Shown: in pieces, positions 17,514 to 45,500 of the stretch
Layout of the letters: every line of letters starts with the position of its first letter
How positions within the stretch are numbered: the first letter of the stretch is position 1
DNA from: Eledone cirrhosa
Lineage: Eukaryota
Assembly (NCBI GenBank): GCA_964016885.1
Contig: OZ024752.1
Coordinates: 744,001-808,000 of the forward strand
Reading direction: 5' to 3'
Length of the DNA stretch: 64,000 nucleotides
Notes under the pieces: model-generated
Databases searched by the model: none
What the model saw: only the letters and a program-made list of their open reading frames with translations
What the model was told of the DNA's origin: nothing
Translations under genes and position numbers: made by a program

Positions 17514-20055
17514 CTGAAATTGATAATAAAAAAAATACTATAAATACAAACCCATTTATAATGAGTCTTTTCAAATTATTAGAAAATGATCATTATCGCC
17601 TAATTCCACAATCAGCCTTGATAATCAACCTAATTTGTATGAATCATGTTCAATAACAGTAATTTTAAAGTTTGCTTTCTGTCTTGAATAATTGTAAAGA
17701 ATGTTATTGATGATAATTTGCCAATTATTATGTGGGTATTGATCACTTTCTGGTTACAAGGACTTAGTAGAATTAGAATTCATGGCAAAATCAAGTGCCA
17801 TAAATTTCATGATTTGAGTTTCTACATGAATCTGACGCTTAATAAATTATGCTTCTTAAATGATGGTAACATATATTCACTGATTCATCTAAAATAAAAA
17901 GGACAGATCTCCATTATTAAAAATATTTGTTTTATTATGAGTTTTCTTGGCTACTACAGTAATGTTTTTTAGGGGAAACTTAAGCCCTTATCTAACAAGA
18001 CATTTCTCTTCTTTAACTGCTTCAAGGACATGGTTCATCAATTTATAATCTAAATTCAGGTGCTTAAACTGTTTCATAACAAAAGGTAATTGTTAATCAA
18101 GCTCCCCTTGTAATATCTTAACTATCTCATAATTTTTATTCAATCTTTGAGAAACAATTAAACAATTAAACAGCTTAATCTCATTTGATACTTAACTGCT
18201 TGAAACTACTTCTGAAGCTGTTTGTTTTAAAGTTTTATATTGATCAAAAAAACTTCCATCATAATTTTATGTAAGAAACTTTAAGTTATGCTCCAAACAC
18301 CAGTTTAATAATGAGAACATTACTTATATTATTAAATCTCTTGAAATTCTTAATTATTTTCAAAATTATAGACAGTAGCTTTCATTAGAAATGTGCCAGT
18401 GAAAGGGTTATTTATGAAAACGACATACAAGAATTAATTCAACACAGAACTCTGTGGGATGTCATTCTTTACCTCTGTTGGAAATATTTTTTGTTAAATG
18501 ATTAAAAGAACTTATAAACTCCTTATAATAATTTCCTTGGGCCCAAAACTGATAAAAAAAAAACTCTGCTTAAGAAATGAATCAAATGTTTTGGTATAAT
18601 CGGTATATATTAAGGTTATATAAAAAGATATTTCTAATCTTTCTCTTAAACAAAAAATAGATACAAATCTAGCAAGCCAATATGAAAAAAGATACAAATC
18701 CAGCAAGCCAATAAGAGAGCCCCTTTGTGGTCGCTTAATCTGCTAGAAATAGCAACCACGTCACTCTAAAATCACACCTTACTCTCTTAAAAATGCTAGG
18801 ACACATTGGTGAATTTAGCCTATATAAACAAGACAGGATGAGAATGACTGGAAAACCTTAGTTCATTGGCCAGCTAGTTCAGGAGTGGCCTTGGATAAAT
18901 AGAAGTTAACATGACTCTAACAACTAAAGAATGAATTTAAATTTAATTAGATCTTAATCAACCATGCTTGTCCTCTTAGTCGGATGGTTGATATGTAGCA
19001 GTAATTTGGAACTCTTTTTAATAGAGTTTCTTTTACACTATCAATCAGCCACCAAGAAGCTGACCTCTGTGGCCTCATAGATAAGTTTACATTAAGAATG
19101 GGTTTTCGAGTTGCCAATATGTCTGAGATTTTGACATATCAAATAACCATCTGCTTGTTCTCAGGTCTTGGAGACAAAGGAAGGCATATTCATAAATAGC
19201 CTGCTACCAGAGCCAAAAAGGATGGTTGCAGAATTGATTCCTAGCAGTTAACGACTCTGTGAGTTGCTCTTGGCCAAGCCAATGAAATTTATCCCATTAA
19301 CAGGAGTTTGGTAAATACAATTTTAATAATATCTTTGCAAGCAAATACACCACACAATTCATCTGTGGTTATTTGTTCTTCATGTATTATCGTATAAACT
19401 TCAGCAAAAGCTATATTTAATAAATTAGTAACATAGCAGCTTTGTGGTTTATATATTTCATTTCCTATGTGATCAAGGTAAATTACTTACCCAAGGAACC
19501 ATAATATCATCATCATCATAATAAACAGTTACTCACTTACTTGCACACCTGCAATCTCTGGTCACACTATATCAAGCGTATCATTCTTCCCTTGCCTACA
19601 CTCTACACAACAGTGACCACTCTACTGAGTAATCCACAAGTGAGTACATTCACAATAACCAAATCAACACCGCAACACAGCCATTCATCCTAGCATTCAA
19701 CTTGCTATAATTGGTGACATTGCAACATGATCGAATTGTAAAAATGTAGTTTTAGTAATATTCCATGAGACTAGATTTTTCTCCCTCCCCCCCCTTCCCC
19801 CACATACAACTGCCTGCTTGTGAAATGAACAAGTGGATAAGCATTCAACAGACACATGCACCTTTAACATAGTTCTCAGGGAGATTCAGCATGATACAAT
19901 TTTACAAGGCTGGCTCCTTGAATAACGGGTTAATGGGTACAACTCATTTTTGCCAGTTGAGTAGCCACGAACAACACGAAATAAAGCCTCTTGCTCAAAG
20001 ACACAATGTGTTGCCCGATCTATAAATCATGAGTCAAACACCCTAACCACTAAGC

Positions 20056-20090
<35 letters not shown>

Positions 20091-23000
20091 CAGATCATGG
20101 TGTTCTTTTTGAGGCAATGTGTCATAGCCAATTGCCTTTCCTGGCATCAACCCTTTTAACCGTTTAGTGTTTACATTACTCTATATATACTATTGTATTT
20201 TCACAGTAAAGGCTTTATCTCACATAATATTGAATCTATGAGGTTTTTATATTATTTATTGTGGGAACAATACCTTAACATCAATATGAATGACCAGTTA
20301 CAGCCAGTTTGAACAGAAAGAGGTGAGAAAATGTTGGCCAGATATGGCCGGTCTAAATGCTAAAGGGTTAATGACATTTGACAACACACAGGCATATGAT
20401 GTACAGATACATATAGAAGAATGAATTTATTTCTATTAAAAAACATAGGGTCAAAATTGAAATAAAGACTAGTATAACTTACTGAAGGTCCTGTAGCCAG
20501 CAAACGTTTCCTTCTTGTAACAGGTCCAGTTACGGAAGTTGGATTACTCTGTATAAAGAAATACAAATACATAAACAATGAGTGTGTGTGGGTGTATTTA
20601 AAATTGAAATATATACTCCATATAAATTGTAATTTTTTTACTTGGAGCTGAAACTACTCTTTATTACTATCTGAACACACACACACGCATGCGTATGTGT
20701 TTGCAAGTGTATATGTATGTATATTTCTTTATCCCAATCATCATCATTAACATCATCATCATTTTCACTGCTGCTTTCCCATGCTGGGATGGGTTGAACC
20801 ATACATATATATACATGGGTGTTTTTTGTGGAGGTATATGGCATAGTAGTTAGGTTATTTGGTTCATGATCGTAAGGTTGTGTGTTTGATTCATGCCTGC
20901 ACTAAGGAACACATTTTGTCCTTGAGCAAGATGCTTTATATCCTGTTGCTCCAGTGGTCTGAGGACTTATCACAATATCATTAATACTACAGTATTAATG
21001 ATATTGAAAGGTCTGGTAACAGATAAGGCTGGATTTAGACTCTGGGAAGCACAGGGCAGTTCAGGTTTAGTGCCCCTTTCATATAACATCAAAAAGCACT
21101 TCAAGGCCACTTTCCCTGCTAAAGGTTGACTTTGCAGATCCCATGACAAGCTTCTATACTTTGCCATATTAATTATATTCTCCCTCAACAATACTTTAGT
21201 TTTCATCTCCTCCACCATCATCCCCAGAAATGTATTTTTTCATATTTCTCTTTTCCTACCTCCTCCTACTACATTCCTTCAGTTCTCTCCCCTAAGCACT
21301 TTCATCCTTTCACTATACATGACCCAAATATCTCATCCCAGCAACAATTACTGGCTTTATTCCCAACATCTTCTCCAATTCATTGTGTTATCCTCTCTCT
21401 GAGCAATACCCCACTCACCCACCTTATCATTTTCAATTTTGCTCTTTCTCTGGTGATCCACATTCTGGATGATGTATTTCACCCATTTCTTGCTCCCATA
21501 AATCATGGCATTTCTCAAACACACATCATACATGCTTCCCTTCAGTTTCAGTGACACCCTTCTCCTCACTAACACGTCACTCAGTTCCCAGAACTTTTCT
21601 AATTCTTGTGTATCACCCTCTTCTTTGTTCATTTCTTCCTGGGAGGGTCAGGAGTTTAGAGTACTCAAATACTCCTTCCAGCAGGTCCTGTCAGAAGCAA
21701 TTATCTTCAATTGATCTGGCTGTATCCCCAAGCAAGACCTACCAATGTTATCCAACCATCTTGCTTGGGGTCTACCCCTGGGTCTCCTGCCAATTGGTTT
21801 TGCCAGTAAAATCTGTCCAGCGATTCTTTCCTGAGACATCCTAACCACATGTCCATAATATGAAAGCTGTGATCTCTCAATCAGAAAAGTAGCAGCTCTA
21901 CCTGGAGAAATTCTCTGGTCTCCAAGCTACACACTCTATTAAGTAACATTACTCATAAAAATCCCATTTCAGACGCTTGTATTTACAATCATATTCTTTT
22001 GGTCATTACCCAAGATTCATTACCTTCAGTAAGGGTTGACACGAATATGAAATTGAAGATAGCAACTTTGGTTTTTCCACTTACCTTCCTTCTTCTGATG
22101 GGGGGTAGGTGCCTATGAGTCCCACATGACAAAAATTAAAATTAAAATACACAGCAAATTACCAAACGTTTGATGAGGGAGAGGGCTGTTTGAAGAGGAG
22201 GAGACCTGTTCCTAGAGGAGGGGTGTTTGACGGAGGGCCCAGAGTATTTGCTCCTTCCTCCATCTAGGTAGATAAAAGAAAGGACTAAATTCATGATGAA
22301 TATATATCATATTAAAGGAAACATAATATTGAATTTAATAAGCTTTTACCATTGAGCAATTATTTTCCTTCCCAGATTGTGACATTACTGATGGACTGTT
22401 TTCCATTATTGACAGTTCTTTGGTGTTTTGGGATAACTTATCAATCTGGAATAAAAATATACAACCATTTTGAAAGAAAAAATGTTTAATATAATTAATC
22501 TTATAAATATTACAACCATGTAATATACTAACTTTGATGTTCATTTTCAACATGTATTTTAAAGAATAATTCACCCAAATTTTAAGGATAACTATGAAAA
22601 TAATTATATTTAATGGAAAATATTCTGAGTCAGTCTTTTACATATTGTGTATTGGCTCATTGGTCTGATGTCACATTTGAAGAAAGAAAGAGCAAGAGAG
22701 AGAGAGAATTAAGAAATGGGTTAAAGGAAGAGTATACATACAGAGTAGAGTTAAAAGCAAATAGAGAGAAATAGAGAAGCCAAAGAATGCTATACCAGAA
22801 CATGAGTACACACACACACACAAGTAATTGTGCTTGCAGAGCATTTGTATGAGGTTACTTTATCTTTTCATCCTTTTCTTCATTCTTTTTGACAAATATA
22901 TATTCCTATTCTTTCTTTTTTCTCAAACCACTTCCTTCTTTAATACTATATAGTGTTTGAGTGTGAGCAATATTATAAATCCTTTTACTCAAGTGCAGGC

Positions 23001-26000
23001 ACTGTGAATTCATTAATTTATTTGCATATATTTTTCTTATATTTATACATTTTTATTTATTTACCTACACAGAGTTGCAAATGTATACTCCCTGAATGAC
23101 CTGTCATATGATGCGTAATACTTAAGTACAGAAATGATAGGCACTTTCAATTATTCAGAAATATTCTGATGGATAATTATATTTTTGTAAATTTAACACG
23201 TGGAATAACAATATTAATTATATAAGTTGTGAGAATTTTAAAAATCTTATCTCTGAAATAAAATAATTGTTTCTACAATAGGCACAAAGCCATCAATTAT
23301 CCCAGTGTATTACTGGTACTTTATTTTATCGACCTCCATTAGGATGAAAGGCAAAGTTATAAAATAATGAAATAAAATATTGATAATGTTAATTAAATAG
23401 TGTAATACAAGTTCATTTTATTACTGTACATTCATGTAGATGCCTCCCCACTTGGAATGTAATTATATAAATAATTGGTAGAATGTTTAGGTTAATGCCT
23501 TCTAGTATTTAGCTATGTCCTTTTACAATCTAAGTTTCATGTTCACAGGAGTCATTAGAATAAGTACCAGTCATGTACTGTGGTTGACTTAATTAATTAT
23601 ATCCCATTCCCAAACTTTGTAGCTTTGTATCAATATTAGAAATCATATTATTAATGAAGATGACATTGAATATATTTATAGCCGTGTTAGATTTGCAAGC
23701 ATTTCATGTATGGGTGTAGAATCAGTTTTAGTTTTGGCAACAAAAAAAAAAAAAAAAAAAAACTGTTGCAGAACAAGAAGAAGAAGCTAATTTGGCAACA
23801 CAAAATATTTGCTACATACAGAATAAAGATTATACAAGTTCTTACACATGCTTTAATGTATGTCAGTCATTAAACTTATGTTAAAATGAAAATAGCTGAA
23901 TTAATACTGTGAACATTTCTGAAATCAATCAAATTTAAATATACTTTGAAAAATCCTTTTTGATTTTATGGATTAAACCAACTTACATTATTATTATTAT
24001 GAAACTCTTCTTCTGTTATATTTTTCCAAATATTTCTACGTAAGTATTTTTGCAAACCTGCTTCTAATTTCTTCGAATCCACAATCTTGGTTGATCTAAA
24101 ATCATATATATATATATAGAGAGAGAAATGAATATTATTACAAATAAAGAATAGTGAAAAATTTCTGAGAATTAAGTTTTATATATAACTAGACCACCCA
24201 TGACCCATTGGGTCATGTTCTCTTAAAAATAATTTTAAAATAATTAAAATATACACAGACATGTATCTCTTTCAATCTACTCTCTCACAACTTTTTCTCT
24301 ATCTTTCTCTCTCTCTATTTATGAAGGTAACCGGAAAGACCCTGTATCTTGGGAACCAGTGTTCTGATTCACGCGAAACTTGTTTTATTCCATTTGTATT
24401 CCCATTTCAGGGTCAACTTCCTTTCAAAGTATTTTCCCATTATGCTCCATTTCGGCTGTATCAAATTATAGACGAGACACAATCATAGAGCTTTAGTAGT
24501 ATATAAATTTCTGTATAATTTAGATATTTTTTATTTATTCATATGAAATAATGTATGATATAATTACCGTTTTAATTTTCCATTTGTATTTTTTTTAACA
24601 AAGCCTTCACTTTCTAGCCTATGAAATAAACCATGGGCCACAGTATTTTCCAAACCTAATTTCTTAGTAAATTCAGGAAGTGTAATCTTGTTCTCTTGAG
24701 TACAAAATAAAAGTGCTCTTCGCCACATACATGTAGTCTAGAGTAATAATAGAAAAATATAAATGTAAATCATTTCAGTTTTTTTATTTATAATCCAACT
24801 TTATGTATATATAAAGATAAAGGCACACTAGAAAGTAAAAATCTACTAATATATAATTTTTTTCTATTTTCGGCACAAGGCCAGCAATTATCCCAGTGCA
24901 TTACTGGTACTTTATTTTATCGACCCCGTAAGGATGAAAGGCAAAGTTAACCTCAGGAGGATTTGAACTCAGATCATAAAGGGACGTAACTCTACGCCGC
25001 AAAACATTGCTCTTGTGTAGTTGTCCGTCACACAAAGGGAGGTAACTCATCTACAACCACATATACATAAACGGACAAATTATACAAAATAATTTTCTTC
25101 TTTTTGGCCCAAGTGCATTACTGGTACTTTATTTTATTGATCCCGTAAGAATGATGCCATACACTCACATCTATGTGATGAGTGTTGAAGGAAGGGGGCT
25201 GTGACAAAGTATAGAAAACAGCGAACAATGTGTGTGCATGTAATAATTATTTTCTTTAATAAGTCTGTTCATGTATATGCTTGTATAATTTAACAGTTCA
25301 TACATGTGCCTAATATATTTATTTAAGAAATGTATGTAATCAATTTTAAATTGGGAGTTTTTACATCAACTATAAGTCATGACCTGCTTTATGTGGCTTT
25401 AAGTCATATGAGTTTAGGTTAGTTTCAGTAATGGAGAGTGCAATTGAAAGGAAATGTTGTTTAGCGAGAGAAAGACAGACCCTTTTTATATAGTTGATAC
25501 TACAATTAGCCATCATTTTTTATGGCACAAGGCCAGCTAGTATAAAATAATATACTATTTCATGAAGGAGTAAATAATATACTATGTCACAAAATAGTAA
25601 ATAAGCAACATAATATTATCGCTAAACCTCAAGTCATAAAAAAAAAATCAAGTTTTGTTTTAAACAAACAAACCATAAATTTATATACAAAGAACTCAAA
25701 TTTTAATTCCAATCTTTTTTTAGATTTTAAAATTTTAATTGATAAAATGTTTTTTAAAAAAAATAGTATTTCTTTGGGATTCATTTTTGATGGTTGACGA
25801 AATGGCATTTGGATGTATTTTATAGTGACTTTATTTCTCTCATCTAGTGTCTTTCAAATATATTTTAACAAATGACAATGGTAGGTATAATTTGTGATTA
25901 TTTTGTGTTAAAAAAATTGCAATGCTTACCTGTAAACTTGTGGGAGACAATCCTATCAAACTTGGATCTGTAGGATTCTTTCGCTCATATCCTGGCTAAA

Positions 26001-29000
26001 ATATTATTAAAAGCTAAATTATAGTTTTTATTATAGTTCGCTCAAGAATTCAAAATATACCTAAACCTATTTTTTAGAAATAAAAATGACAACGTTTTGA
26101 AAAAATTAGTATTCTTTATAGTAATATGAAATTTCATAGATTTAATATATAATTCAACATGAATAAATTTAAGAATTAACTAATCTTATGTTAAAAAGCA
26201 AGTGTGTGTTGTATTTATAGAATGCTATTTAGAAACAGGAATAAATACCATCTTACTACTAACATAATGAGTGATTAGAAACTAAGAAAGATTCAACCTC
26301 AAAGTGGTTAGTAGATATGTAGTTAACCCTTTTATATCAAAACCGACCGTGGTTCTATGAAGCAAAACCATCCATTTCAAACAATTCCTATATAAATTTA
26401 TATCTTCCAACATGATATTATATGAACCATATTTTAAGTTATCATATTAGGAACGAAATAATTGATCATTTGAGTGAATCCTTCAAAATTCTGCATTAAT
26501 TAATTGAAAGAGAGTATATTTCATTAATACAGTAATGAAAGGGTTAATCAAATTTGGTTGGCTATGCCCAGGCACTGCTATTAATGCTTATGCTGCATTT
26601 GTTCAGTTTAGTATTGATGCAGCTACCCTCATATGTATCATTGTGGTGTAGGTTTATCTGGAATCTTACACAGTAAAATGTTAAAGTGATGCTTGGTTAT
26701 ATAAATTTATTGAAATCTTTCTACTCCTCACAAAACCCTCATGGTTTTTGGAAAGAGATTGAAAAGTTGATGTCCTTTTCCAAAGATTCCTGGAAGTGAC
26801 TACTTTCCTCAAAATGTGAAAACTGACGCAACATATCCTATCCATTGGGGGGAAATAGAGCACAGTCTGTCTGAGCACTTGGTAGAGTGTGGGAATATAT
26901 GTAAGCAAGATACAGACCCTTGGTTAGTGGTTCTGCTTTAGTACTGACTTGATTTGTGATGATCCATCCAACTCTTGCTAGCAGGGAAAATGGATGTTAA
27001 ATGATGATGATGATTATATCTCTGATTTCACAAAACAGCAATGCTATTGAATGATGCATTAGAGAGAAACTGATTATGTTCTTAGATGAGAATAATTTAA
27101 TAAGTGATACAACAGTTTCCATATAAGTAGAAGCTATTTCAAATAGCATTACAACTAGATGTTAAAATAATTTCTCAACCGATCAAATGTACATGTATTA
27201 TATATGTACTTTAAATATCTAAATATTTAAAAAAGAACATCAGCCTTGGGCTAATATATCACAGTATAACTAATCTCAGCATAGCTGGAAAGAAGTTGCT
27301 ATATGATATTATAAGAGACAAATGTCAAATTGTTGCAGCCAATATTATCTTTCAAGAAGAATCAACAATTCTAAGTGGAATGTTCTGAAGAACTGTCATT
27401 ATTACTTTTAAAATCTCTTTCTGATATATCTATGGTTATTAAAATAGCTTTTAGCATGGACTTTATATGCTAAGTGCCTGGCAAAAAAATGTAGGAATAT
27501 TGTTGAGTTTAAGCTAGCTGACAAATAGTGTGGTTTTTGCTTCATTCTGTAGCAGGACTTTGAGAAATCGTGGGAGCATTGCCAAGATTTATATGTTTGT
27601 TTTGTGTACCTCAGAAAGGCATATGGCCATATTCACTGGATTTGTGGAAGGTTCTGCAAGAGTATGAGATCAATGAACAGCTTCTTGTTGCCTTGAAGTC
27701 CCTATATAAACGCCTTAATATTTTTGTTTAGATAAATGGTGCTAAGTTGAAACCGTTCAATGTGGGTATCGGACTTTGTCAAAGACGCTGATTGTCAGCT
27801 CTACTGCTCATAATCTTCATGAACAGGATTGACATGCACAGCCAGGTTGGAAGTGGTATTAAAATCAGTTGGTGTAAGATCAGTTGGGTAGAATTTATAG
27901 AAGATATGGTGTTACTTAAATCATTCAGATTTCCAACATGCAGTTGATAGGTTTGCTGTTAAGTGATGCATTGCTGAAACGAAAATCTCTCAAGAAAGCC
28001 TGTGCAGTGCCCTTTGCATGTGAGTGGTATTACACTGAAGTAGGTGGAGAAGTTCAAGTATCGCAGGGCCATTTTCATAAGTGATTGAAGGCTGGACGCT
28101 TAATTAAATGCATACATTTTTGGAGTTGGTGTAGTAATATGCCAGCTTCAGCACCTGGTCCTCAGAAAAAGGGAGGTAGAAGTAAAAGCCAAACTCACTA
28201 TCTTCAATTCAGTATTCGTGCCAACTGTTACCTATCTTGACTAATGACCAAAAGAATACAATCATGAATACAAGCAACCGAAATGGGGTTCCTCTGAAGG
28301 GTCTTTGGAATAACATTACTCAGTAGAGTGTATAGCTCAGTGATGAGGGAGTCACACTAGATAGAGCTGCTGCTTCTCTGAATCAAAAGACCACAGCTCC
28401 AGCAGTACAGACATGTAATTAAATTGTCTAAGGAAAGAATCACTGGACAGATTTTATTGACAAAGCCAACTGACAGGAGAGCCAAAAGGAAATCACAAGC
28501 AAGATAGTTGGATAACATCCATGGGCTTTGTTGGTCTACCTCCAGAATTCAGTTAGATTATTGGGAGATAGTTGATTCCGATAGGACCTTTTGGAAAGTG
28601 TATCTGAGGACTCACAACAGAAATGACAAAGACTGTAAGGGCTGGTGCTATGGTGTACTGGTGAAGATCTGGTCAACAGCAAACAATATGGCCTGTTTTA
28701 TGCATGTGGGCCCAACACTCCTTAGAAGCTATCCTCACTCTCACTACACCTGTACCCCACCCATGCCCATTCTAGCATTCATTAGCTGCTGCCTCCATCT
28801 AAAGCCCTTAGATACCTATTCCACCTGAGTAGCTTCTCTCTTCCTCCTATGCACCCATCCACAACACTTCCCCTTCCCAGCACTGGGGAGTTCCACCCCT
28901 ACCCCAGCATAACGACCAAACCATCCACGCCCCCACCACCTTTACCAATTCAGTATTTTTCATCACTACATACCTATCCCCATTAATCACCCAGTCGAAT

Positions 29001-30500
29001 CACACTATTCTGGCCATAACGTTGTACTTCTCTCCTGCCTATTGCCCCCACCCCACAGAGCAGAGGGCCAAACACTTCTCTAGCCTTGGTGCCATGTAAT
29101 GCACTTGGCAGATCCTGTAAGGGGGCTGCAAAAGGATGGGCACCTGTAGAAACGATGCCTAAAAAAGAAAAGGGTTGAGAAAACCCTTCAGTCATGTCAG
29201 TGCAACATCTTCTCTATTATTGGTGATCTACATGATAAACACACCCAGTACATACTGTAAAGTGCTTGGTGATAGGACGGGCATCCAACTATAGAAAGCT
29301 TGCCAGAAGATTTGGAGGACCCTTCAGTTGTGTCAAATACATGACAACCTCTCCTGTGCACTCAGTAGAATGTGAAACCATGCATAAGCAAGATGCAGAC
29401 CCCACTCCATAGTCTGTCTGGAAGGTCAGTAGCTCTGCTTCAGTACTGATAGGTCTATGTTTAACCCTTGCTAGCAGGCAAAGTGGATGTTAAACGAGGA
29501 CGATGATGAGATAGTTAATTAACCCATTGTTTTACAATCATTAAAAAAATAAAAAAATCCTCGATTAGGTAGAATACTAATTTGTAAATGTATATATATA
29601 TCATCATCATTTTACGTCCACATTTCCCTGCTTGCAAGCTTGCAAGGGTGGGGTGGGTCCTATTCAGCACAGCATCCCTCCATTCATCACGGTCCTTCAT
29701 CATCGCCTCCGTGAGCTTCAGCAATCTGAGGTCAGCTCTCACCACCTCCGCTCATGATTTTCGTTGTCTTCCTCTACTGTGTCTTCCTTCTACTGGGATT
29801 TCTTGGCACTTCTTTACCCAACAGTCATCCTCCATGTGCATCACATGTCCATACCAACACAGTCTTCTCTCCCGCACACTACAGCTTATCCCTCTTATAC
29901 ACAGTTTCTCTCGCAAGTCGTCTATTCTTAGTCGTTCATGCACATTGACATTGCACATCCAACGGAGCATGCTTGCTTCATTTCTCTAGCCATCACATCT
30001 CCTCCACGGTTGCTGCCCATGTCTCACTACCATGCAGCATCGTGCATCTCACACAAGCATCATATAACCGGCTTTTCGTTTGTAGGGAGAAACCTTTCTT
30101 TGTCAACAGAGGCAGCAGCTCCCTAAACTTCTTCCAACCCATCCTTATTCTAGATACTATGGCCTCGGAGCACCCTCCACCCTTGCTAATCTGATCACCA
30201 AGGTACCGGAAGCTATCAACCACCTCTATAGATCCTACCTGCATTTGAAAAATGTGTCTATTACTGTGACTTCTACTGTCAAATTTCCCTGAACATCTAC
30301 TGCATATGTAGTTTTCCCTACCTGTTAGTTTGCCTGCTATCCCACTACATCTCTTGTGTACCCAAGATCTGCATTGTCTACATTTTATAGAATTTATGCC
30401 AACTCGTTTCTACATTTCGAACATGGCCATTTCCTTGATGGAAATATATATATATATATTATAAACACAAATAACCAGACTAGACATGTTTCATTTGTAT

Positions 30501-30534
<34 letters not shown>

Positions 30535-33500
30535 TATAAAAATGGCAATATATATATATATAAGATTCTTTGTCTGTCTGTCTTTTTCCTTATTCATTCT
30601 CAAATGGCTCGACCAAATCAAATTAAATGTTATAAGGTAATAGACCCCGGGATTAACAACATGTAATTTTTATTTTCATTTGGATTAAAACAATATAACA
30701 TTTTATCTAAAATATTCAACTATAGTCAACTATAATAAACGGACATTTTATAACACTATGACGACGACAATGACATCACATTTTGTATATGAGTGGGTAT
30801 GTGTTTGTGAGTGTGTTTTTACACATTTCCTATGTACGTTAGGCCTTAGTAAGTTACATACACATACATCTTCATGAAAATATTTAATCAGGTACACAGA
30901 GAATTAAACACACACACGTGATGACAAATAAGTATATGTGTTGAGTGTATGTGTGTGTGAGTATACATACATATCTGTGATAACTGACATAACGAAACCT
31001 GGAGGTGAAACTGTGTGTGTTTGTATGAATATATGTCTGTGTGTGTTTTTTTATAAGTGTATGTTTGTGTGAGTGTATGTGTGGCTGTACATGGGTGAAA
31101 CTCTGTGTGTGTTTGTATGAATGAATGTCTGAGTGTGTTTTTTATAAGTGTATGTTTGCGTGAGTGTATGTGTGCTTGTTCGTTTATATTTATATTCTCA
31201 TCCTGTTAAATTAGCAGCTGATACATTTGCTTATATTTGGTTAATTTATACTGCATACAAAAATAGTAATTAATATATATTTCTTTTGGATGTTGATACT
31301 TATTTGTTTACAATATTGAAAAAAATGTTTTTATTCTAAAAATTCCTCTCATACCTATTTGAATTTAAGAGGCTTCAGTTTCCAGTCAAACTAAGTTTTG
31401 TTATTTCAATTAACAAATCTTAGGGTCAATCCCTCCAGGTAGTTGGACTTGATCTCTCTACTACATGTTTCTCCCATGGTCAACTTTATGTTGGTTTCTC
31501 ACGAGTTGGAAGCAGCAACAATTTATTCATTTGGACACCAACAAAAAATTACACAATGAATATTGTTTACCCAGAGGTGCTTCAAGATTGACAGATTTTC
31601 ATTTCTATATTCTATTATCATTACAATTCTGATATTTGTTTTTATAAAATATAGATATTTTAAAATAATTATGAGAAAAAAAAATATCTTCATATTTATT
31701 GTTTACCAATCTGGATAAGAACAGCTGTAATCCGGGCAAAGCTGGGTCGTTCAGCTAGTATATATATATATATTATAAAAGATATATTAGTAAAATTAGT
31801 AAATATTAGTAAAAAAAAAAAAAGCTATTCCTACAAACCTCTGCACAAGATTCACAGACATGATTCATAGGAATGTCATTTTCTGACAAGATCTTGAAAC
31901 AAACAGCATGTTGCCAATAGTTACAGATGTCACAAAGTATCATCAAACCATCCTCCTGCAAAAAAACAAAAAGTAATTGTATTATAGTGATATCTCAGTT
32001 TAAGGTGAATTTAGACTCGTTAACATGTGGGAGTTCAACACTTACATGATAGCATGTTTCACTGTAAGGTGAATTTAAATTCTTGTTAACATGTGGGAGT
32101 CCAACACTCACATGATAACATCTCACTTACATACAATCTCAAGTCCTACTGATTACACAGAAGATGTTGACAAATGAAACGTCCTCCCAATCATTTGTTT
32201 AGCAAGCTTTCTACAGCTGGATGCCCTTCCTATTACCTAGGGTAGTACGCAATGCGTTTTCAGATTCAGAGTTGGTACAGTACTTAGTAAAATAGCAACA
32301 GAGACTTATTCTGTCTCAGTTGGCCAGCAAGCTTCTTCAGCAAACACCTACTGTGTGTTGGACCTCCATTGGTTTTGGCGACAAGTGTTCCAGTTGATTT
32401 GATCAACAGGACAGTTTGGTCAGTGACTGAGCATTCCACAGACACATGTACTATTAGCATAGTTCTCAGGGAAGTTTAACATGATACAGGGTTTGACACA
32501 GCTGGCTCCTTTGAATTCCAAATACAACTCATTTTTACCAGCTGAGAAGACAGGAGCAACATGAAATATTGTGTCTTTCTCAAGGAAACAATGTGCTGCT
32601 AAGAATCGAACTCATGATTTTACAATTGTAAATCTATCATCCTAAAAACTAAGCCATGGGACTTCTTCAAAACACCTGCTACATTAGCCATTACCATTCC
32701 ATCTTTGTTCAGCCATTGTGTATAGGAAAGACTACGTTATACAAATGAATCTTTTTGGTTTTAAGATGGTAGGGTGTGACTTTGAGAGAGATTTGGTTGG
32801 TATTTCTAGCAACCATGAAGTTATGAGTGTCCATTACTAGAAAAATACTGAAAATATACTAGAAAAAATAAAAAATAAAGTATCTTTAGCATTTCTTTTA
32901 CCTGATTATAACCACATGGGCAGTTTTGAACATCAAGATTGTTATTGGCTTTAACAGGTTTCTTAGAAGGACCTAAGGAAAAAAATGTTTTTGATATAGG
33001 AATTTTTATTCTAATATAGAAATTGAATACAGAAAAATGCATATAGTAATTATGAAACGAATTGTATTAATCTTGTGGTAAGATCAACAATGTTTTCCAT
33101 TTGCTCATACTATATAAAAAGACAAAGAGAAAAAAAAAGATGGAATAATTAGAGCAAAATTGAATTGAGGAGGAGGTACAGATGACCAAAAACGTCATTA
33201 AGAAGATCACAGAATGTGTGATGAAAGAACTTTGCCAATTAAAAGACCATTTGGTTGCTAAACCAAATGATGAATGAATTAGTTATCTGACTAATAACAG
33301 TTTCTAATTTAGGACCAAGGCTAGCAATTCATGGGGAGGGGACAGTTAATTATATTTACCTCAGCATTTTACTGGTAGGATGACCCAGAAAAATGAAAAA
33401 CAAAGTTGACCTCAGGAAGACTTGAATTTAGAATGTAAAGAGCAGGAAGAAATGCCACATATGATTTTACTTAACGCTCTAACTATTCTGCCAATCCACT

Positions 33501-36500
33501 TCCTTTAGTTGCCAGGCTAATAATGTTTTCTGATTTTGGGGAGGGGAAAGTCGATTAAATTGACACCAGTACATTTCTGGTACTTTATTTTATATTGCCT
33601 TTCATCAAAGGCAAAGCTAACCTCAGAATGTAAAGGGTCATAACTCTATGCCACAAGGTGTGTTGTCCAATGCCCTACCATACTGCGAATCCACCACACT
33701 CATCATCTTAGTAATAATAATTGTTTCTACTTTTTGCACAAGGCCAGCAATTACCCCAGTGCATAACTGGTGCTTTATTTTATCGGCAAAGTTAACCTCA
33801 AGGGGATCTGAACTTAGAACACAAAAGGCCATAACTCTATGCTGTGTCATGCTCGTAGTTGAACAGTAGTGTAAATAACATGGGGTTGAGAAGATTCTAA
33901 GTGCTACTGAGAACATAACCTCTGTAATGCTGGTGCAATGAAAATAGCTACAACAAATCAAGCATAAATCTAACAAACAGAACAAAATTGGTTTCCTAAT
34001 AGATGCATACAACTAAAGGATCTAGTACATGAAAGGATTTGCTCTGTTTAAAGTTACTAAAAATAAGTTTTTAAAAATACAGAAATATTTACCAAATGAA
34101 CTATCCAAATTTGATTTAGAGTATGTCGGATCAATGTGAAATTTTCCTCCTTGCGTGTTACTTTCATTTATGAGCTGAAAAATAAATACAAAAAATTCAT
34201 TAATATATAGAAATCAATTATTTTACATGAAAATAATCTGACCTAAATTATTAGAATTACACAACAGTATAGACATCAATATCATCAACATCACCAATTT
34301 ATGTCTATTTCCCATGTGTGCATGATTTTTATATATGTTCTGTTTGGATTTGTCTTTTGAATATTATTAGAGACTGCATATGATAACCTGGATAGAAAAG
34401 TCTATTTCTAATCCCAGTTTAATGGCAGTAAGGCCTCAGCTACAGATAGTTCTTTTGTAGTTCCAATGCAAGTGTATGAGTATTTCACTATAATTATTTT
34501 GGACCAATTCCGACAACCCTGCCTTGGAATTCTTGGTCCCTGTACCACCTTGTTACTCACAACTATCAGTTGGTCACTAGCATGAGGGAGCTCCACAAGT
34601 GGGAAAAGCTATTTCAATATATCTTACTTGCTATCCTCTTGGTCAAAGGTTCTCAACGGGGGCATATGCAGCCCTAGGGGCGTTTCGGAAATCCAGGGGG
34701 GCGTTTGGGAGCAAGGGGGCATTAGGGGGGGGGGGGCGTTTGGAGCTTTGGAGTGCACTGGAAGGCTCTTTACTTTGGTAAGTTTTATAAGCCAAGTTTT
34801 ATAAGTTTTATAACCATTTGTATGTCTTTGAGACAGCCAGTGTGAATGCATTTGAATGAGCATGCAGACAGCATAACTATGGTCTGACCGCAGTTGTGAG
34901 CAGGTGTGCAGGCGTGTTTAGACATTAACCGGCAATTGAGATCCTAACAATGGAAAAACCCACAGTCAACTGGGTCAAGGACACTTCAATCGCAGCCAGT
35001 TAGAATCTTGTCTTTCCTTCACCGATAACAATGTATTTCATGTCTGAAATTATTGACTCAACTGTAACGAGTTAACACTATGTAGATCTATTTTATTTCC
35101 TATCGTATAGATAATATTACAAATAAAAAAAATAAAAAAAACACAGAAGCGGGTAGCACACACATCTAGGACCACATACAACACATAATCAGATAATACT
35201 CACATCTAGGACCACATACAACACATAATCAGATAATACACACATCTAGGACCACATACAACACATAATCAGATAATACACACATCTAGGACCACATACA
35301 ACACATAAGCAGGTAATACACACATCTAGGACCACATACAACACATAAGCAGGTAATACACACATCTAGGACTACATGCAACACATAAGGAGGTAGCACA
35401 CACATCTAGGACCACATACAACACACAGGCAAGTAATATATACATTTAGGACCACATACAACACATAAGCAGGTAATACAAACATCTAGGACCACATACA
35501 ACACATAATCAGGTAATACAAACATCTAGGACCACATACAACACATAATCAGGTAATACATACATCTAGGACCACATGCAATACATAAGCAGGTAATACA
35601 TACATCTAGGACTACCTACAACACGCAGGCAGGTAATACATACATCTAGGACCAAATACAACACACATTGTATCATGTGCTACGGACGACGCTAGAGCAA
35701 TGGTCAGCCAACATAAGGGTTTCGTCAGTCTTCTGAAGAGAGAAATATCTGTATTTGTTGTTCATTGTGTCATTCATCGACAACACTTGGCTGTGAAGAA
35801 ACTCAGCAAGCCACTGAGCAAGTCCTTGCAGGTGGCCCTTGATGTCATCAATTTTATCAAACGGCATTCCCTCAATGAACAAATTTTCCGGCAACTGTGC
35901 CAAGATAATGACGAAGAATTCGTCAAGTTGCTCCTTCATAATGAAGTGAGGTGGCTTTCAAAGGGCAACTGCCTTACTCACTTCTTTGAACTGTTTGACT
36001 CTATCATTGAGTTTCTGCGAGGACGCAACACAGAACTGTACAAGAAAACCCTCGATGTGAGGCAAAACTGTGCCTACCTCACCGACATCGTCAACAAATG
36101 CAATAGCATCATTTTGGCTTTGCAGGGGAAGAAGATCACCTTGCTTAAAGCAAGGAATGCTGTGAAAACATTCCTGGCCAAATCGAATGTCATCGAAAGG
36201 AATCTTTGTTGACAGGAATTCTATAATTTTCCTAGTGTCGCCAATGTTCAAAACATTGTAAGCGATGACCAACTCCAAATTTATACCGCTCACCTCCGTG
36301 CGCTACAAGACAACATGAGAGAACGGTTTGTCGACCTTTTGCCGATGGACATCCCAATGTGGGTAGCAGATCCCTTCATAGCTAACGTCGATGATTTGGA
36401 CGTTATATTTCAGGAAGAATTCATTGAACTTCAAGCAGATGACATGATCAAAATTAGATTTCCCAAAATAGGTGAACCCCTTTTTTGGATACAAGAGCAA

Positions 36501-39500
36501 ATTTAGCGTCGATTTCCACACCTACATGCAGAGGCTAAGAGATTTGCTCTGCCTTTTCCAAGCTCATACTTAGTCAAGAGGAGGTTTGGTGCTGTTTCCA
36601 GACTGCACAGTAAGGCTCACAACCGCTACAATGTAATTACATGTGGAGATCTCCGGCTACATCTTACGAAAAATCCAACCTGACGTCAAAGAGTTAGCTA
36701 GACTCCATAAAGTTCAAGGGTCCCATTGAAATGAGGTCAAAGTTAAAGTAAGTTGATTTATCTGAAAACTTAGATATGCTATTGTTACAAAACAAACTAA
36801 CAATTTTTTATATTTGTAGTTGCAGTCTGACTGGACTGGAAACCATCTACTACAATTCACTTACTCATTTGTTGTATATATTTTACCATTTATTAATAAA
36901 TATACCCTCCCACGTGGTCATGAAAACCCTCTTCCGTGGTCCCTAAGTTCACAAAGCAGAGGGGACATCAAGTTAGATATCAACATTTATTCTGTCTGTT
37001 TCATTAAAGGGAAAATTGGAAAGCTTTGAAATGATATAATTGCCACTTTCTTCCAGATAAGAGCACTCTTTGGATAGACAGAGTTGCTCTTGTATAAATG
37101 TTCAAAATAGTTGGTATCGCCTGGTGGGAATATAACAAATTCAACTGGTCCTTATTCATAAAAAAGAACATTTATGTTCCTTTTTTTTAAATTTATATAT
37201 TTCCTTTCAAGGAATGTATTTATACTCTCAGCTGCCTGCAATGGTATCTTTGGAATATTGTTAATCAATTTTTTAGTAATCTACAGATATCAAAATCAGT
37301 AGTATATTGAAAAAATAGAAAAATAGGGTAGGGGGGAGGGGGGGGTTGTGATTTCGAGGGACAAAAGGGGGCGTTTGGCCTAAATGGGTTGAGAACCTGT
37401 GCTCTAGGTAATGCTTTTTCCATTCTGTCCATTGGGAACGTACAGCAGCATTTGCCTGGAGTTCTACATGTCAGAGAACATTCTCTCACACTGTCTGGGC
37501 TCATATCATTGAGGTAGTGATGGTATGGGTTCCTGATATCTAAGTTTATATTTAAAATATGTTTGACAATTCCACAATGCTACATCAATCTTAAAGGGGT
37601 TATTAGACACCTTTCTTAATTTGTCATGATTCACTAGCTCTATACAGACATTTATTGTGGGTACTGGGTTACCATAGGCCTGATTAAACAAATTACTTCC
37701 TTTCTTTTTTTAAAAACCAGAACTTCATCTGTGACAATATCCTAAACTTCTAATGAAATGTGCAAACAGCACCATAATAGTAAGTTTGGTTAGTAGAAAT
37801 GATAGGTGAGGGAGAAGTGCAAGATTTGTGATGTAGTGTGTATATGAACTGTAAAAGGTCAATAGATTCCACATCATTTTAGCGAATGTGAAATGAAAAG
37901 GATTCACAATTTCAAGACTTGGTATTTAGTATATTAAGAATCATATACAGCCTTAGTAACACTGTTTCCGTGGTAAAGAAAGTTCAGCACCCACTGTATA
38001 CTCAGAATATTAAGGAAAATGTATAATCCTGCTCAGATGTTCACCAACTTCAATGAATGTATAACAGAACATTGTAACCGACTACATTACATTAGCATAT
38101 CATAACTACTTCCTATCCAATCAGAAAAAAAGTTGTAAAAGGTTCATAAACTACACAAAATAACATTAATATCCTACTTCCATATATGGAAGAGGCTTAC
38201 TAAAATTTCATCATTTACTAATATATATAAATCAATAATCAAATTTTTACATTTATGATTTTTTAAATTATAATATAAAAAGAATATCAGTTCTATTGCT
38301 TAATCTAATACAAATGAAAAGTGCTATGATTCAATTAGTAAAAATAAGATATATAATCTATATGAAAGAAATAATAAAGTTCTGCTTGAAATTTAAATTT
38401 TCACCCAGCTCACAAAATAATATTCTGCTTTGAGTAGAGGATGGCATTGCCAACTGGCCAGACTCTCCTCATAATAAGACCACCCAACTCCATACTGTAA
38501 TTATGGTTGGCATTAGGAAGGGAATCCAGCAGCCATAAACACCCAGCCAAAACATGGTCCCACTATGTGCAAGGTATGGCATGGTCAATTGGTCAGACTT
38601 GTCCCATAATGATGCCACCTAGTTCCACACTGTAAACGTGTTTGGTGTTAGGAAGGGCATCCAGCAACTGTAAAAATCTAGCCAAAACATGGTCCTACTA
38701 TGAGCAAGGTACAGCACAGCCAACTGGCCAGATCTCCATCATAATGGGACCACCCAGCTCCCAAAATAAGGTTCCGCTATGAGCAGGGTATGGCACAACC
38801 AATTGGTCAGATTTGTCTCTCAAAGGGACCACCCAGTTCCACTCAGTAAATGTGGTCGGTATTAGGAAGAGCATCCAGATGTAAAAAAACCCTGCCAAAA
38901 TACAGTTCTGTTTGAGCAAGGTACTACGCAACCAACTGGCTAGACTTGTATCTTAATCTGGATGACCTATCTAACCCATGCAAGCATAGAAAAATAGAAA
39001 TCAAACGATGAGGATGAGGATGATGGTGATGATGATCAACAATTTAAAATTATGATTATGTGAAAACATTTAACCTTTGTAGAATTACAGCTTTTCCCTA
39101 ATGTGTTTTCTATGTTATCTTTTTCTTCAAACTGTTCTTTATTGGTTTTAATTCTCAGTTTAATTCTGAAAAGATAACATAAAACTAAAATGTTATTCAT
39201 ACTATATCATTAAGTAAATGTCAAAGTAATAAAAGATGTTGAGTGTATAATAAATATAGAAACAGTTCACAAGCTTGTATTAAAAAATGTGAGCATTATT
39301 AAAGTAAATATTGCAATTAACATTATTAAAGTAAATATTGCATGTAACATTGGGGAATTGGCAGCATAGTTACGTCCCCTTACGATATGAGTTCAAATCC
39401 AGCTGAGGTTAACTTTGCCTTTCATCCTTACGGGGTCAATAAAATAAAGTACCAATAACGTACTGGGTAATTGCTGGCCTTGTGACAAATGTAGAAACAA

Positions 39501-42500
39501 TTATTAAAGTAAATATTGCATGTAACATTATTAAAGTAAATATTGCATGTAATATTATTAAAGTAAAAAATGTGTGTAATATCATTACAGTTAATAAGAG
39601 TGTTTAGTATGAAATATTTTGTATTTATTTTAGAATGATAGTCTTGCTAATTCCATTAATCTAATAATATTTTAAGACCTTCACAGTCTCATCCTCAGAA
39701 TGGAAATGCTTATGATTGCAAAGAATCATGGAAATACAGGTAAAATCTTCAAACCTGGATTTACACAATGATTCAATGGTTAAATGCAGGTAGATTTCAT
39801 GGTTAATTTCACGGGTGCTGTATATGTGTGTTGATTCTTGGTTTGTATTTTACTATTAGTAAAAGAATAACACCTGAAGGTTACTAGATTAATGGATATA
39901 GTAACACTATTGTTCCAAACAAAACATAAAGGACTAATAAGTAAATAAGAAACATCTTTCATCACTGTATATCTAATGAAATACATTCTATTCTAATTAA
40001 TTAATTAACAATTTTGAGGGATTTACTAAAATTATTAATTATTTCATTACTAAGATAGTAACTTAGTATAAGGTTCATATATATAAAATTATGTTGGAAG
40101 ATTTTAATTTAAATTGGAAAACTTTAAAATGGGTGGTTTTGTTACATAGAACCAGAGTCAATAACTTTCATAACATGGTCCATCAACTTACCTGTTTGTG
40201 TGTGTATATATGTACATACATACATATATACACACACACAAAAACATTCACCAAATTGAAATAAATATTTTGATTTATGAATTAAAAATTTTCTTATACT
40301 TACAAATGAAATGGCTGAAAAGAAATAAGAAATATTAATCATTAGTGATATTTATTGATAAAATTATAGTTACTAATTAGTATTTGCATTAAATTTATAT
40401 TAAAATATTTACTGTGGTAAAACTTATTTACATTGCTTTAAAGCAGTGATTCCACACGTGGGGTGCATGCCCCACAGGGGAGCAATTTGAATATTCAAAG
40501 GGACAATTTAAAAATGATGTTAATGAGAGTAAACTTCGGGTTTTATCTTATTACTTTTACACCAAGGCAACTTTGGAACAAATTACTGTCGGAAACTCCT
40601 GACTCACCTCCTCTACACATGTTATTGTGCATCTGGCATCACCCATATGCCAATTTGTTTACACTTTGTAGTTGATCATTGCTGTTTTTATATCAAATGT
40701 TTGAGATGTTGGGGTGGTGTATGGTGCAGCACAAAAGGTTGGGAACCACTGCTTTGAAGGCAGTGGATTGGCAGAATTGTTAGAGTAGTGGATAGAATGC
40801 TTTACAGTACTCTATGAGTTTAAATACCACCAAGGACAACTTTGCCTTTTATCCTTTCAGTGTTGACAACATAAATTACCAGTTAAGTACTGGAGCCGAT
40901 ATAATCGACTCACACAACTAAAAAAAAAAGTTACTGGCCTTGTGCCTAAAGAAGAAATTAATATTTTATATTGCTTTTGGGAGGCAGTGGATTGGCAGTA
41001 TTGGTAGAATGTTGGACAAATTGGTTTATGGTATTTAATTATGATTTACTACATTTCTGAATTGAAATCTTGCAAGGTCAACTTTGCCTTTCATCCTTCC
41101 AGTGTTGATAAAATAAGATACCAGTTAAATACTGGGGTAAATTTAATTCATATCCTCCTCCCCTCATAGTGTAGGCATGGCGCCTGAAGTAGAAACCATT
41201 ATTCTACATAGTTTTTGTAACATGTACAAACTATATAGTATACAAGATCGCAAACAATGTTGATTACCAAAAGATAATACAAGTAAACAAAAGAATAATA
41301 GTAACTATCAATGTAGAGGTTATGTTTATAAAAGATATGCAATGAATTTATTTTAACTAGAATAACACTTCTTATAATTAATTTATAAGCTGTGACAGTG
41401 ATGTATTTGTTTTGCAAGTTTTTTGATATGAGATCATGCGTTGAAACAGATATTGTTATATTTGGGGAGGGTCATGTTGTTCTAATATTGCCAGAAAAAT
41501 ATAGTAAAACACACTCACTGTTTGGTTTGGTTTTCGCTTCAGTATATTTTTATATCTATATTTATATCTATATTTTTTAACTGTTGGTCAATCAATAATA
41601 AACATTGATTGCCAGCTGACGTATTTATAGAAATATAAACACATACTGAAGCAAAAACTAAACCAAACAGTGAGTGTGTTTTACTATATTTTTCTGGCAA
41701 TATTAGAACAAGTTCAAATCCCGCCGAGGTTAACTTTGCCTTTCATCCTTAAGGGGTCAATAAAATAAAGTACCAGTAATGCACTGGGATAATTGCTGGC
41801 CTTGTGCCAAAAGTAGAAACAAATATTAGAACAACATGACCCTCCCCAAATATAACAATATAATTAATTCAATTATCATACAATATGCAAACTTACAGTG
41901 GAGACATTTCCCATTTTAATATTCATTGGTTCTTCAAATTGAAAATTATTTGAATTTGTTGTCTTAAATCCTGGTGGTTCATAATCAGCAGGGGTAACTA
42001 TAAGGAAACCATGCAATTGATTAAAATAATTGATAATGTTTGAGAATCGAAAATATCAGAAAATTCCTCGGAAAATTTATAGTGACATACCATTATCATA
42101 ATAAAATAGCTTTATTGTCATTAAAGCTTCATCTGGAAGGGGTTTTAAAGTCTGTGTAAGGACTATGATTGTTCTCAATAGCTGGATTGTGGCTTTCTTT
42201 GTGTCATTTGCACTATAGGCACTTGAAACTTTGGTGTTATTTCTATAAATGTAAATGAAAATTTGATTATGGTATTATAAAACGTACTAATGATAGCAAT
42301 CCATATTTACAAGACATTTTTCAAAGCTTGCATTGAAACAGTTAAGTTCTATAACAATAAAGTCTGAACAATAACAGAAATACTATCAGAAGATAGAAAT
42401 GCTGAACATCACCCTCTTTCACAATTTGCACTTGTGTTTCAATTTTCACAAAAAAATAGTGAACAGCTAATTGCAAGACTTTCAGTTAATAGCAGTTTAC

Positions 42501-45500
42501 ATTTAGAAAATCTAATTGTAATTGCACATGTTTTGAGAAGCTATAGAATTAATTCCAGTTTTGAGTCTCAAAGTCTTATCCTGTAGGAGGAGCTCTGTGA
42601 AAGACATACATTACTGACAATTTAGCCAGATGTAATTTTGGATTTAATGAAGCTGCTGACCTTGCTATGAACAAGAACAAATGAAGAAAGAAGATTGGTC
42701 AGTGTTAAGTGTATAATATATCCTACATAGTGGATATCCCTTCTGGAAATACAATAAGATGTTAAAATATGAAGATGAATGATGATAGTTAGTCTCGATT
42801 CCAAATGTTTGTCTACAGGTGAGTTTTGTGTATGCTTTATTACCCCTCTTGCACTTTACAAGATCTAACTTTTTAAAAATAACATACTGATTTTCAATTA
42901 ACCTTATATATACAAAGTTTCTTTAATTTTCCTGCATTGAAAATGTTCCTTTATCAAGGGATCCTTATTATTTGGAATAAAATATAGGGTGTATGAAAAA
43001 TTATGACATGTAAGTATTTTTCATGATATTGTTCCAAGATACATATTTATATAATTCCTTAAATTATTAAGGTTTACCAAGGAAAAATAACTATTTAAAA
43101 ATTAATCAATAATAAACATAATATATAGATCACCCCCTTCCCTCCTACTCATCAAACTGCCAAATATGTCAACATACGTCAACATACTTATCATCCTATT
43201 CTTCACCCCACCCTAAAGGGGTAGAGAGGGCTCTTCAGTCAAATCAATGACAGACAATCTACCAAGTGCTGGTGCCATGATAAAATGAATTTGATAGAGT
43301 GCAGAAACATACATAAGTGAGATGAACCCCCCCTGCCCCACTATCAAATTCCAGCCAGGTTAGTAACCCCAATTAAGAACAGAGTTGGTCTATGATAACT
43401 CATCTAAATCCTGCTAGCAGGGAAATGAATGTTAAATGATGACGATGATAATGATAGATTTGATTTTTTTATATTAATTTTCTTTTTAGAATACAGGAAC
43501 ATGAACAGAAAAAAAAATTCTACATGTTTTTAAAAATCTTTATAAAATAAGCATCTTTGTATTTGATTATATTTATAATTACCTATATATATCAATTCCA
43601 CTATCCATGTAGGAAAACTTGAATGTATAAGATTCAATGATACTCTGGAAGAAAATATTTAAAAAAAGATTGTATATCAAATTTAAAAAGAAGTAAATAT
43701 AATTAAGGTATTTTGATAAGCCTAAACAGTTTATTTCATTGACACTAACAAATATATCTCAATATTTTTTGTTTGAAGTTGCTGATAAATCCTAGAGATT
43801 TGACATGGCTTTAATTCCAGAAATTGTCATTAACATTATTAAAATAGTAGATATTGTGATACATTTTTGGCTATCTCATTGGCATGTGGTGTCCATGAAA
43901 GATCCTCAGAATTTGTTAGGAATAACATTTTATACACACACACACAAACGATGATGATGATGATGATGATATATATATGGTAAAAAGCAACAACCTACAT
44001 GAGGTGCCTCTGATATGACTATCAGAGGCACCTCATAGAATAGTCTAGCAGAATAGGTTGAATCCTGCTTGTCTCATAGTAAGGATTAGGATCGTGAACA
44101 CCAGTGGCTTTGCAGATGATTGATTATTAATTTGGCAATAGGTTGGTACAACTCCTCCAGTTAGCAGAGAAATCTACCAGTATGCAGGTGTGGCGAGCTG
44201 TATATATTCTAGCTATTAGAAAAAGCAACATGAATGCTTCACCTTTGAAAGATGGATAACTTAAGAAGAAGAAGAATATTTAAGTTTTATAAAGTTTAAG
44301 TAATGTGTTGTTCATAAATAAGGTTCAAATGTAAAGTTGTAGATGTGCTTATTTGATAGTGTAGCAATTGCATGTTGGTGCTGTTGAATTTGAATAGGCC
44401 ACTATTGGAAGTGATTTTTAAACCACTTTCAAAGAAGTGGTACATGTTTTTGTGTGAGATGTCAAAGTTGTTTGTAAATGGCACCTCTTTTGTAAATACC
44501 ACCATGGGAAGGCAAGTATCATTTATATTGGAGTATGACTAGAGAATAAATTCCAAACCTGGAAGCAGGGACTAGAGAGAAAGGGCCTCAAAGTCAACAT
44601 GACAAAGACTAAGGTCCTTATAAGTAGACGAGAAAACAGAACCCAGATCCCCTCAGGGAAATGGCCTTGCTCAGTATGTAGGAAAGGTGTAGGTAGGAAC
44701 TCCATTCTTTGCCCCAAATGCAAACAATGGGTACACAAGAGATGTAGCGGGATCTCAGGAAGCTTAATTAAGAATGTAGGATTCACATGCAGCAGCTGTG
44801 CTGAAACAGCAAGCAAACAGCCACAGGAAACAAGTACCACCAATCTCTGGGAGGGCCCTGTAGAAACAGTAGACAGCTTCTGCTACCTAGGTGACCGAAT
44901 TAGCAACGGAGGTGGGTGCTCAGAAAGTACAATAACTAGGGTAAGAACGGGATGGAAGAAGTTTAGGGAACTACTACCACTGCTAGCTGCAAAAGGCTTC
45001 TCCCTCAGAATGAAAGGCAGACTGTATGATGCGTGTATCCGAACAGCGATGTTGCATGGTAGTGAGACCTGGGCGCTGAAGGTGGAAGACTTACGTAGAT
45101 TAGAGAGAAACGAAGCCTGCATGCTCCGATGGATGTGTAACAGTAATATACGTGAACGACAAAGCATAAATGAATTGAGAGAGAGACTGAGCATAAGAGG
45201 AATCAAATGCTGCGTGCAGGAGAGGCGGTTACGCTGGTATGGACATGTGATGCGTATGAAGGATGACAGCTGCATAAAAAGGTGCAGAGCACTAGAAGTT
45301 GATGGAAACCGCGGAGTGGGGAGACCCAAGATGACTTGGGATGAGGTGATAAAAGCCGACCTTACCCAACTACACCTCTCAAAGTCAATGACACACGACC
45401 GTGACTTCTGGCGTCACGCAGTAATACAGGGTACCCGACCTCCCATGGGTACATGCTGAAGCATATAAACAATATGCCCCCCCACCCCCCCACCGCAAGG

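Follow-up and report, generated by a model that had tools for sequence, protein, structure and literature searches.

How meiotic breaks are placed independently of PRDM9 in animals is an open question, to which an axis protein able to read H3K4 methylation on its own would be an elegant solution. The stretch of DNA analyzed here (the window, 64,000 nucleotides from the octopod Eledone cirrhosa) raises this question through a predicted meiotic HORMAD (Hop1) gene with a PHD finger, which a sequence-only reading had described as keeping the methyl-lysine cage of Set3/MLL5/ASH1L-type PHD fingers and as a possible tether between H3K4-methylated chromatin and the axis in one polypeptide, a job done by Spp1-Mer2 in yeast. 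The finger is predicted from the sequence to be one half of the PHD-winged-helix (PHD-wHTH) chromatin-binding region of an octopod meiotic HORMAD, and by analogy with its orthologues the view favored on balance is that the PHD finger and the winged helix grip nucleosomes at two places, with a preference for methylated K4 that is probably weak or nil.

The 26-residue motif behind the proposal lies on the minus strand and is formed only by joining exon 12 (32972-32902) to exon 13 (31955-31839), with its first seven residues closing exon 12 and the remainder in exon 13. The span originally proposed, 31839..32920, does hold the motif after splicing, though its end at 32920 cuts the first Cys codon (32922-32920). 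Every residue that had been singled out is present, namely the acidic patch (E303-D304), the Met (M307), the Trp two residues before the His (W316 and H318) and the Asn before the first Cys (N295), with the correction that M307 stands three residues ahead of the third Cys and not immediately before it. The predicted zinc ligands form a Cys4-His-Cys3 series (C296, C298, C310, C313, H318, C321, C336 and C339), directly after which comes the winged helix. In all six frames of the window the strict motif pattern turns up a single time, and in 30 base-shuffled windows not at all; exon 13 by itself exceeds the cut-offs of Pfam PHD_5 (E 5.6e-8) and PHD (E 7.9e-7). Both results argue against a chance occurrence. 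Over both PHD exons, DNA contigs from runs X1 and X2 show no letter difference to the window, although all three runs compared behave like DNA contigs from a single sample, which may be the one used for the assembly itself.

The surrounding gene was modeled on genomic DNA from 53166 to 17418 with two octopod proteins, P0001 and P0003, as guides; the winged-helix exon, used as a query, had picked out three of 22 candidates, P0001 of Octopus sinensis, P0002 of O. bimaculoides and P0003 of Argonauta hians. The resulting prediction, 17418..53166 on the minus strand, comprises 19 coding exons that encode 541 aa in an open frame, with 18/18 introns GT-AG, and is identical to the annotated O. sinensis HORMAD in 421/546 columns. 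Its predicted domain order is HORMA, variable linker, PHD, winged helix, variable tail and conserved C-terminal end, laid out as follows:

53125..53166, minus strand: exon 1, with the start codon and residues 1-14 (14/14 identical to P0001)
41897..50549, minus strand: exons 2-8 (50549-50405, 48799-48699, 47554-47534, 46713-46687, 43644-43583, 42242-42091 and 41997-41897), N-terminal HORMA domain; PF02301 matches in 4/4 exons tested, three above cut-off; 173/189 identical to P0001
34093..40314, minus strand: exons 9-11 (40314-40304, 39165-39075 and 34174-34093), closing part of the HORMA region plus the variable linker
32902..32972, minus strand: exon 12, with Q294 (32928-32926, likely pocket position III), N295, C296 (32922-32920) and C298
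31956..32901, minus strand: 946-nt phase-0 intron splitting the PHD finger, with a GT donor and an AG acceptor with pyrimidine tract
31839..31955, minus strand: exon 13, the PHD core, with E303 (31955-31953, likely position IV), D304, M307 (31943-31941, position II), W316 (31916-31914, position I), H318 and five Cys
25930..25995, minus strand: exon 14, connector from PHD to winged helix
23987..24737, minus strand: exons 15-16 (24737-24568 and 24095-23987), winged helix (E 1.6e-14 to 9MYP and 3.9e-7 to 9MUG)
17418..22445, minus strand: exons 17-19 (22445-22350, 20548-20483 and 17513-17418), variable tail and putative closure motif

The last 14 residues are basic-hydrophobic and identical to P0001, P0003 and a further homologue, P0004, at 12/14, 13/14 and 10/14 positions, with the corresponding figures for the variable tail being 42/89, 38/89 and 22/89; this conserved C-terminus is a putative closure motif. 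The linkage of the PHD finger to the HORMA domain follows from the open 19-exon model, its uniformly GT-AG introns and its identity to P0001. It is very improbable that the PHD exons lie outside the HORMAD transcript or that their join is a modeling artefact: the join is predicted from DNA, and LINE-like fragments with PHD-like Cys clusters occupy the same introns, but the open model with its canonical sites is colinear with two named full-length octopod HORMADs, and the clusters, rejected as HORMAD parts, fall outside the exons and fail the strict motif.

These Cys clusters sit at 30409-29993 (minus strand), 44539-45456 (plus strand) and about 61730-61581 (minus strand), in fragments that we take to be akin to LINE retrotransposons; the first two score above the Pfam PHD cut-off, and each carries a Trp two residues ahead of the His. 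Elsewhere in the gene, intron 1 holds a 385-codon open frame on the HORMAD strand (51885-53039, minus strand), resembling LINE reverse transcriptase, intron 10 holds broken frames (35637-36683, plus strand), similar to a transposase of the hAT/Buster type, which adjoin units of about 41 nt arrayed in tandem at 35150-35680, and in intron 11 the summed contig depth at 33500-33790 reaches about 1.6 million, the mark of a short, very abundant repeat. A 152-nt tandem copy (149/152 identical) of the exon 2 acceptor and first 114 nt of the exon, found 186 nt upstream of exon 2 at 50773-50622 (minus strand), keeps the AG acceptor, ends without a donor and is either a recent duplication or an assembly artefact. 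Micro-exons of 21, 27 and 11 nt (47554-47534, 46713-46687 and 40314-40304, minus strand) lie in or adjoin the HORMA domain and have canonical splice sites.

Among solved proteins, two Hop1 structures match the PHD exon best (E 2.1e-15 and 3.2e-13) and the winged-helix exon likewise has 9MYP and 9MUG on top, followed, for the PHD finger, by Set3, MLL5, PHF20 and ASH1L (E 1.3e-7 to 1.1e-3). The same neighbors are suggested by predicted fold, for which the AlphaFold2 model of the O. bimaculoides orthologue P0002, whose PHD finger is 41/48 identical to that of the window, served as a stand-in. The model is confident over about 131-280, and its predicted fold matches 9MUG (Z 21.1, rmsd 1.6, 146 residues) and 9MYP (Z 21.6, rmsd 3.5, 149 residues), with the next entry scoring 10.1; Set3, MLL5 and ASH1L are again the next PHD fingers after Hop1. 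The proposed assignment of the pocket to the Set3/MLL5/ASH1L type is thus borne out and extends to PHF20. In the P0002 model, helices at 284-306, beyond the winged helix, are predicted with modest confidence (block pLDDT 59-71) and bear on the absence of an HTH-C extension that is expected of this family. The P0002 record has no HORMA domain and an unrelated N-terminus, and is likely a partial gene model.

Residue numbers can be carried over from the sea star through P0005, a His-tagged entry whose length and numbering agree with the sea-star construct and which shares 75 identities with the octopod model in 149 aligned residues. W376, M367, D363, V354 and R463 of the construct correspond to W316, M307, E303, Q294 and R403, the V354/Q294 pairing being gap-free. 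The sea-star DNA-binding residues R463, R477 and R480 have R403, R420 and K423 as their aligned counterparts in the octopod winged helix, the last two past a small gap and so in a less certain register.

The idea raised by this locus proves not to be new. The PHD-wHTH module has been solved from sea star and blood fluke in a study that already compared the pocket with Set3, MLL5, PHF20 and ASH1L and proposed HORMADs of this kind as a means of directing breaks to H3K4me3 chromatin (Rodriguez et al., 2025; PMC12365614); the word Spp1 is absent from that paper, so the explicit Spp1-Mer2 wording belongs to the sequence-only reading, while the underlying idea is shared. The accessions modeled there include no mollusc, and no paper on a cephalopod HORMAD is among the matches listed, although the supplements of a preprint by Milano et al. 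may include a cephalopod. That preprint, in the portion available, finds the PHD-wHTH form in 36/147 HORMADs, with a conserved cage, and its loss in vertebrates and some nematodes; the available portion of a preprint on cnidarian PRDM9 does not mention HORMAD. Since the proposal has been published together with two crystal structures and a negative result on methyl preference, the locus adds a mollusc example and no new mechanism; the observation is correct and extends an already described feature to one more species. Its added value is that of a natural variant, as the octopod pocket differs at one wall and offers a comparison for testing the role of the pocket.

The published biochemistry also bears on selectivity. 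The winged helix binds DNA with a Kd of 16 uM and the sea-star module binds nucleosomes at a low-micromolar level, while histone-peptide binding was undetected in either orthologue and, for the sea-star module, it made little difference to binding whether nucleosomes were unmodified or carried the H3K4me3 analogue (Rodriguez et al., 2025). The W376A substitution in the sea-star module lowered nucleosome but not DNA binding, and AlphaFold 3 ranked H3K4me3 top in 17/17 PHD-winged-helix modules (Rodriguez et al., 2025). Of the checks suggested for the octopod finger, the peptide measurement had thus already been made on orthologues and came back without detected binding, although the substitution of Trp by Ala did weaken nucleosome binding; the claim of methyl selectivity finds no support in the sea-star protein. 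Methyl-lysine analogues can under-report binding. The nucleosome comparison was made with such an analogue, and in the part of the review file available the authors state that direct data for a methyl preference are lacking (Rodriguez et al., 2025).

Whether the octopod pocket could nonetheless hold methyl-lysine was judged at four positions. Positions I (W316), II (M307) and IV (E303) match the Set3/MLL5/PHF20/ASH1L type, whereas position III, where a small hydrophobic residue or Thr is expected, is probably occupied by Q294, though V293 might substitute. As the two solved proteins carry Val and Ala two places ahead of the first Cys, and the published description of the pocket speaks of alanine or valine (Rodriguez et al., 2025), position III, the likely wall residue, was set there; a literature search on MLL5 pocket residues found nothing. 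Position IV is acidic under either assignment because the neighboring D304 is acidic as well. The Asn directly before the first Cys, which had been taken as the departure from the cage, is at the wrong position for this purpose and was rejected as meaningful: among the homologues described below (from the best 150 of 1017 matches), the residue there is aromatic in 3/101 and Arg in 48.

Homologues were gathered by an exhaustive search with the P0001 module, from which the best 150 of 1017 matches were taken; 152 proteins were then reduced to 101 that have a winged-helix match and a complete PHD pattern (51 dropped; 74/101 also match HORMA), a set that includes P0001-P0003 and the sea-star construct and is biased towards the query. 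In this set, drawn from the best 150 of 1017 matches, position I is Trp in 66/101 and lacks it in 35/101, position II is Met in 94/101, position III is Ala, Val or Ile in 92/101 (P0114 possibly being mis-anchored in the counts) and position IV is Asp or Glu in 61/101. All four positions conform in 50/101 and the combination of Trp, Met/Leu and Asp/Glu occurs in 56/101, so the cage is unevenly conserved across this set. Within the same best 150 of 1017, an acidic position IV accompanies 56/66 Trp-bearing and 5/35 Trp-less homologues; the two features are kept or lost together, which does not amount to independent co-evolution because kin share states. A quick tree of 56 rows places the Trp-less homologues at several points and clusters the loss of Trp, with seven changes, at least three of them forced by starred branches, and gives no order of events. 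One well-supported Trp-less clade of ten (P0060, P0067, P0089, P0099, P0104, P0107, P0121, P0127, P0131 and P0139) consists of HORMADs that keep the PHD finger and winged helix, with the acidic wall also gone in most.

These data give some room to the possibility, tentative and on present evidence unlikely, that the octopod finger is a true H3K4me2/me3-selective reader, so that one protein would link marked chromatin to the axis and guide breaks towards sites of H3K4me. The octopod retains the Trp, the Met and the acidic positions, the nearest solved PHD fingers outside Hop1 are those of Set3, MLL5, PHF20 and ASH1L, with entries for Set3, MLL5 and ASH1L that include H3K4me2/me3 complexes, and both the AlphaFold 3 ranking and the joint retention of Trp and acidic position IV, shared kinship notwithstanding, point the same way. 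The Gln at position III and the two orthologues studied in vitro, with neither peptide binding nor methyl preference detected, argue against it, as does the acknowledged lack of direct preference data. The yeast module, moreover, is described, in the part of the source available, as enriching axis proteins on nucleosome-rich islands, which amounts to loading and not to loop tethering.

The wall at position III differs further among the octopods: in a gap-free alignment the window has Gln, the two Octopus species Lys and Argonauta Cys, with position IV Glu in 4/4. In the tree the model groups with P0001 and P0003 (support 100), and the sister of this clade, P0004, has Val at position III and Asp at position IV; because of this, and because Ala, Val or Ile is otherwise usual at position III, the octopod pocket has drifted at position III and, mildly, at position IV. 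Such drift could mean that the pocket has fallen out of use, with the PHD finger serving the winged helix as a folding partner and DNA contacts providing most of the chromatin binding. A Lys at position III would be expected to repel methyl-lysine, and the 35/101 homologues without Trp (from the best 150 of 1017) still retain the domain. This explanation nevertheless looks doubtful, given that the Trp, Met, Gly and acidic pair are retained in 4/4 octopod proteins and that a Val one residue earlier in 3/4 might fill the wall. Conservation of the PHD finger to P0001 (40/48) equals that of the winged helix (62/75) and exceeds that of the linker (34/59), which counts against loss of function, although relative to P0003 it falls slightly below the winged helix (33/48 and 56/75).

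The favored two-contact view can be set out as a sequence of steps. The winged helix would contact DNA, as in the sea-star orthologue, while the PHD pocket may hold histone H3 by its N-terminal tail, with lysine 4 in a shallow one-Trp pocket; since peptide binding was undetected in both orthologues, the basis of this H3 contact is the AlphaFold 3 models together with a single mutant. The PHD Trp, if the sea-star result carries over, would add nucleosome affinity, and the two weak contacts together may load the HORMAD on chromatin rich in nucleosomes. HORMADs are coupled to the axis and break-forming proteins by their HORMA domain and closure motif (PMC12365614, PMC13494558, the latter in the part available), and the octopod HORMA domain and C-terminal closure motif would then build the protein into the axis, favoring breaks nearby. 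The polar residue at position III may render the octopod pocket less methyl-selective than that of the sea star; the AlphaFold 3 preference for H3K4me3 (17/17) speaks against weak selectivity and for methyl reading.

A bolder and distinctly improbable extension is that the HORMAD PHD finger is a real H3K4-methyl sensor that places invertebrate meiotic breaks and has been retuned or switched off lineage by lineage, the octopods having exchanged Val for Gln, Lys or Cys at one wall and lengthened another from Asp to Glu, and several lineages having lost the Trp. Were it true, the state of the pocket would predict whether recombination in a species follows H3K4me-marked promoters. As matters stand, the octopod protein is a Set3/MLL5-like member of the PHD-wHTH HORMAD family that is not to be filed as a methyl reader, because position III departs from the expected residues and the orthologues show no methyl preference.

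Its closest known counterparts are the PHD-wHTH modules of Patiria miniata (9MYP) and Schistosoma mansoni (9MUG), which share with it the domain order, the eight zinc ligands, the pocket Trp and Met, the acidic position IV and the basic winged-helix residues, and differ in having Val or Ala where the octopod has Gln at position III and Asp where it has Glu at position IV. The PHD fingers of Set3, MLL5, PHF20 and ASH1L (5TDW, 4L58, 5TAB, 7Y0I and 8VLD) have the same one-Trp pocket and acidic wall, with Ile, Val or Thr at position III in place of the octopod Gln, and are described as H3K4me2/me3 binders, whereas peptide binding was undetected for the Hop1 modules (Rodriguez et al., 2025). The yeast HORMAD resembles the octopod protein in packing a PHD finger on a mid-protein winged helix (Z 8.3 over 131 residues with the P0002 model), but its lysine pocket is poorly conserved, it carries an HTH-C extension and it binds bent nucleosomal DNA, according to the part of the source available, whereas the octopod protein keeps the Trp pocket. 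Spp1-Mer2 of budding yeast is similar in offering a PHD finger that could couple H3K4-marked chromatin to axis-bound break machinery, though the Spp1 PHD matches the PHD exon of the window weakly (E 0.093); in the part of the source available, H3K4me3 and Mer2 are both direct binding partners of Spp1, which shapes the break map (PMC13494558), whereas a comparable role for a HORMAD PHD finger would be hypothetical.
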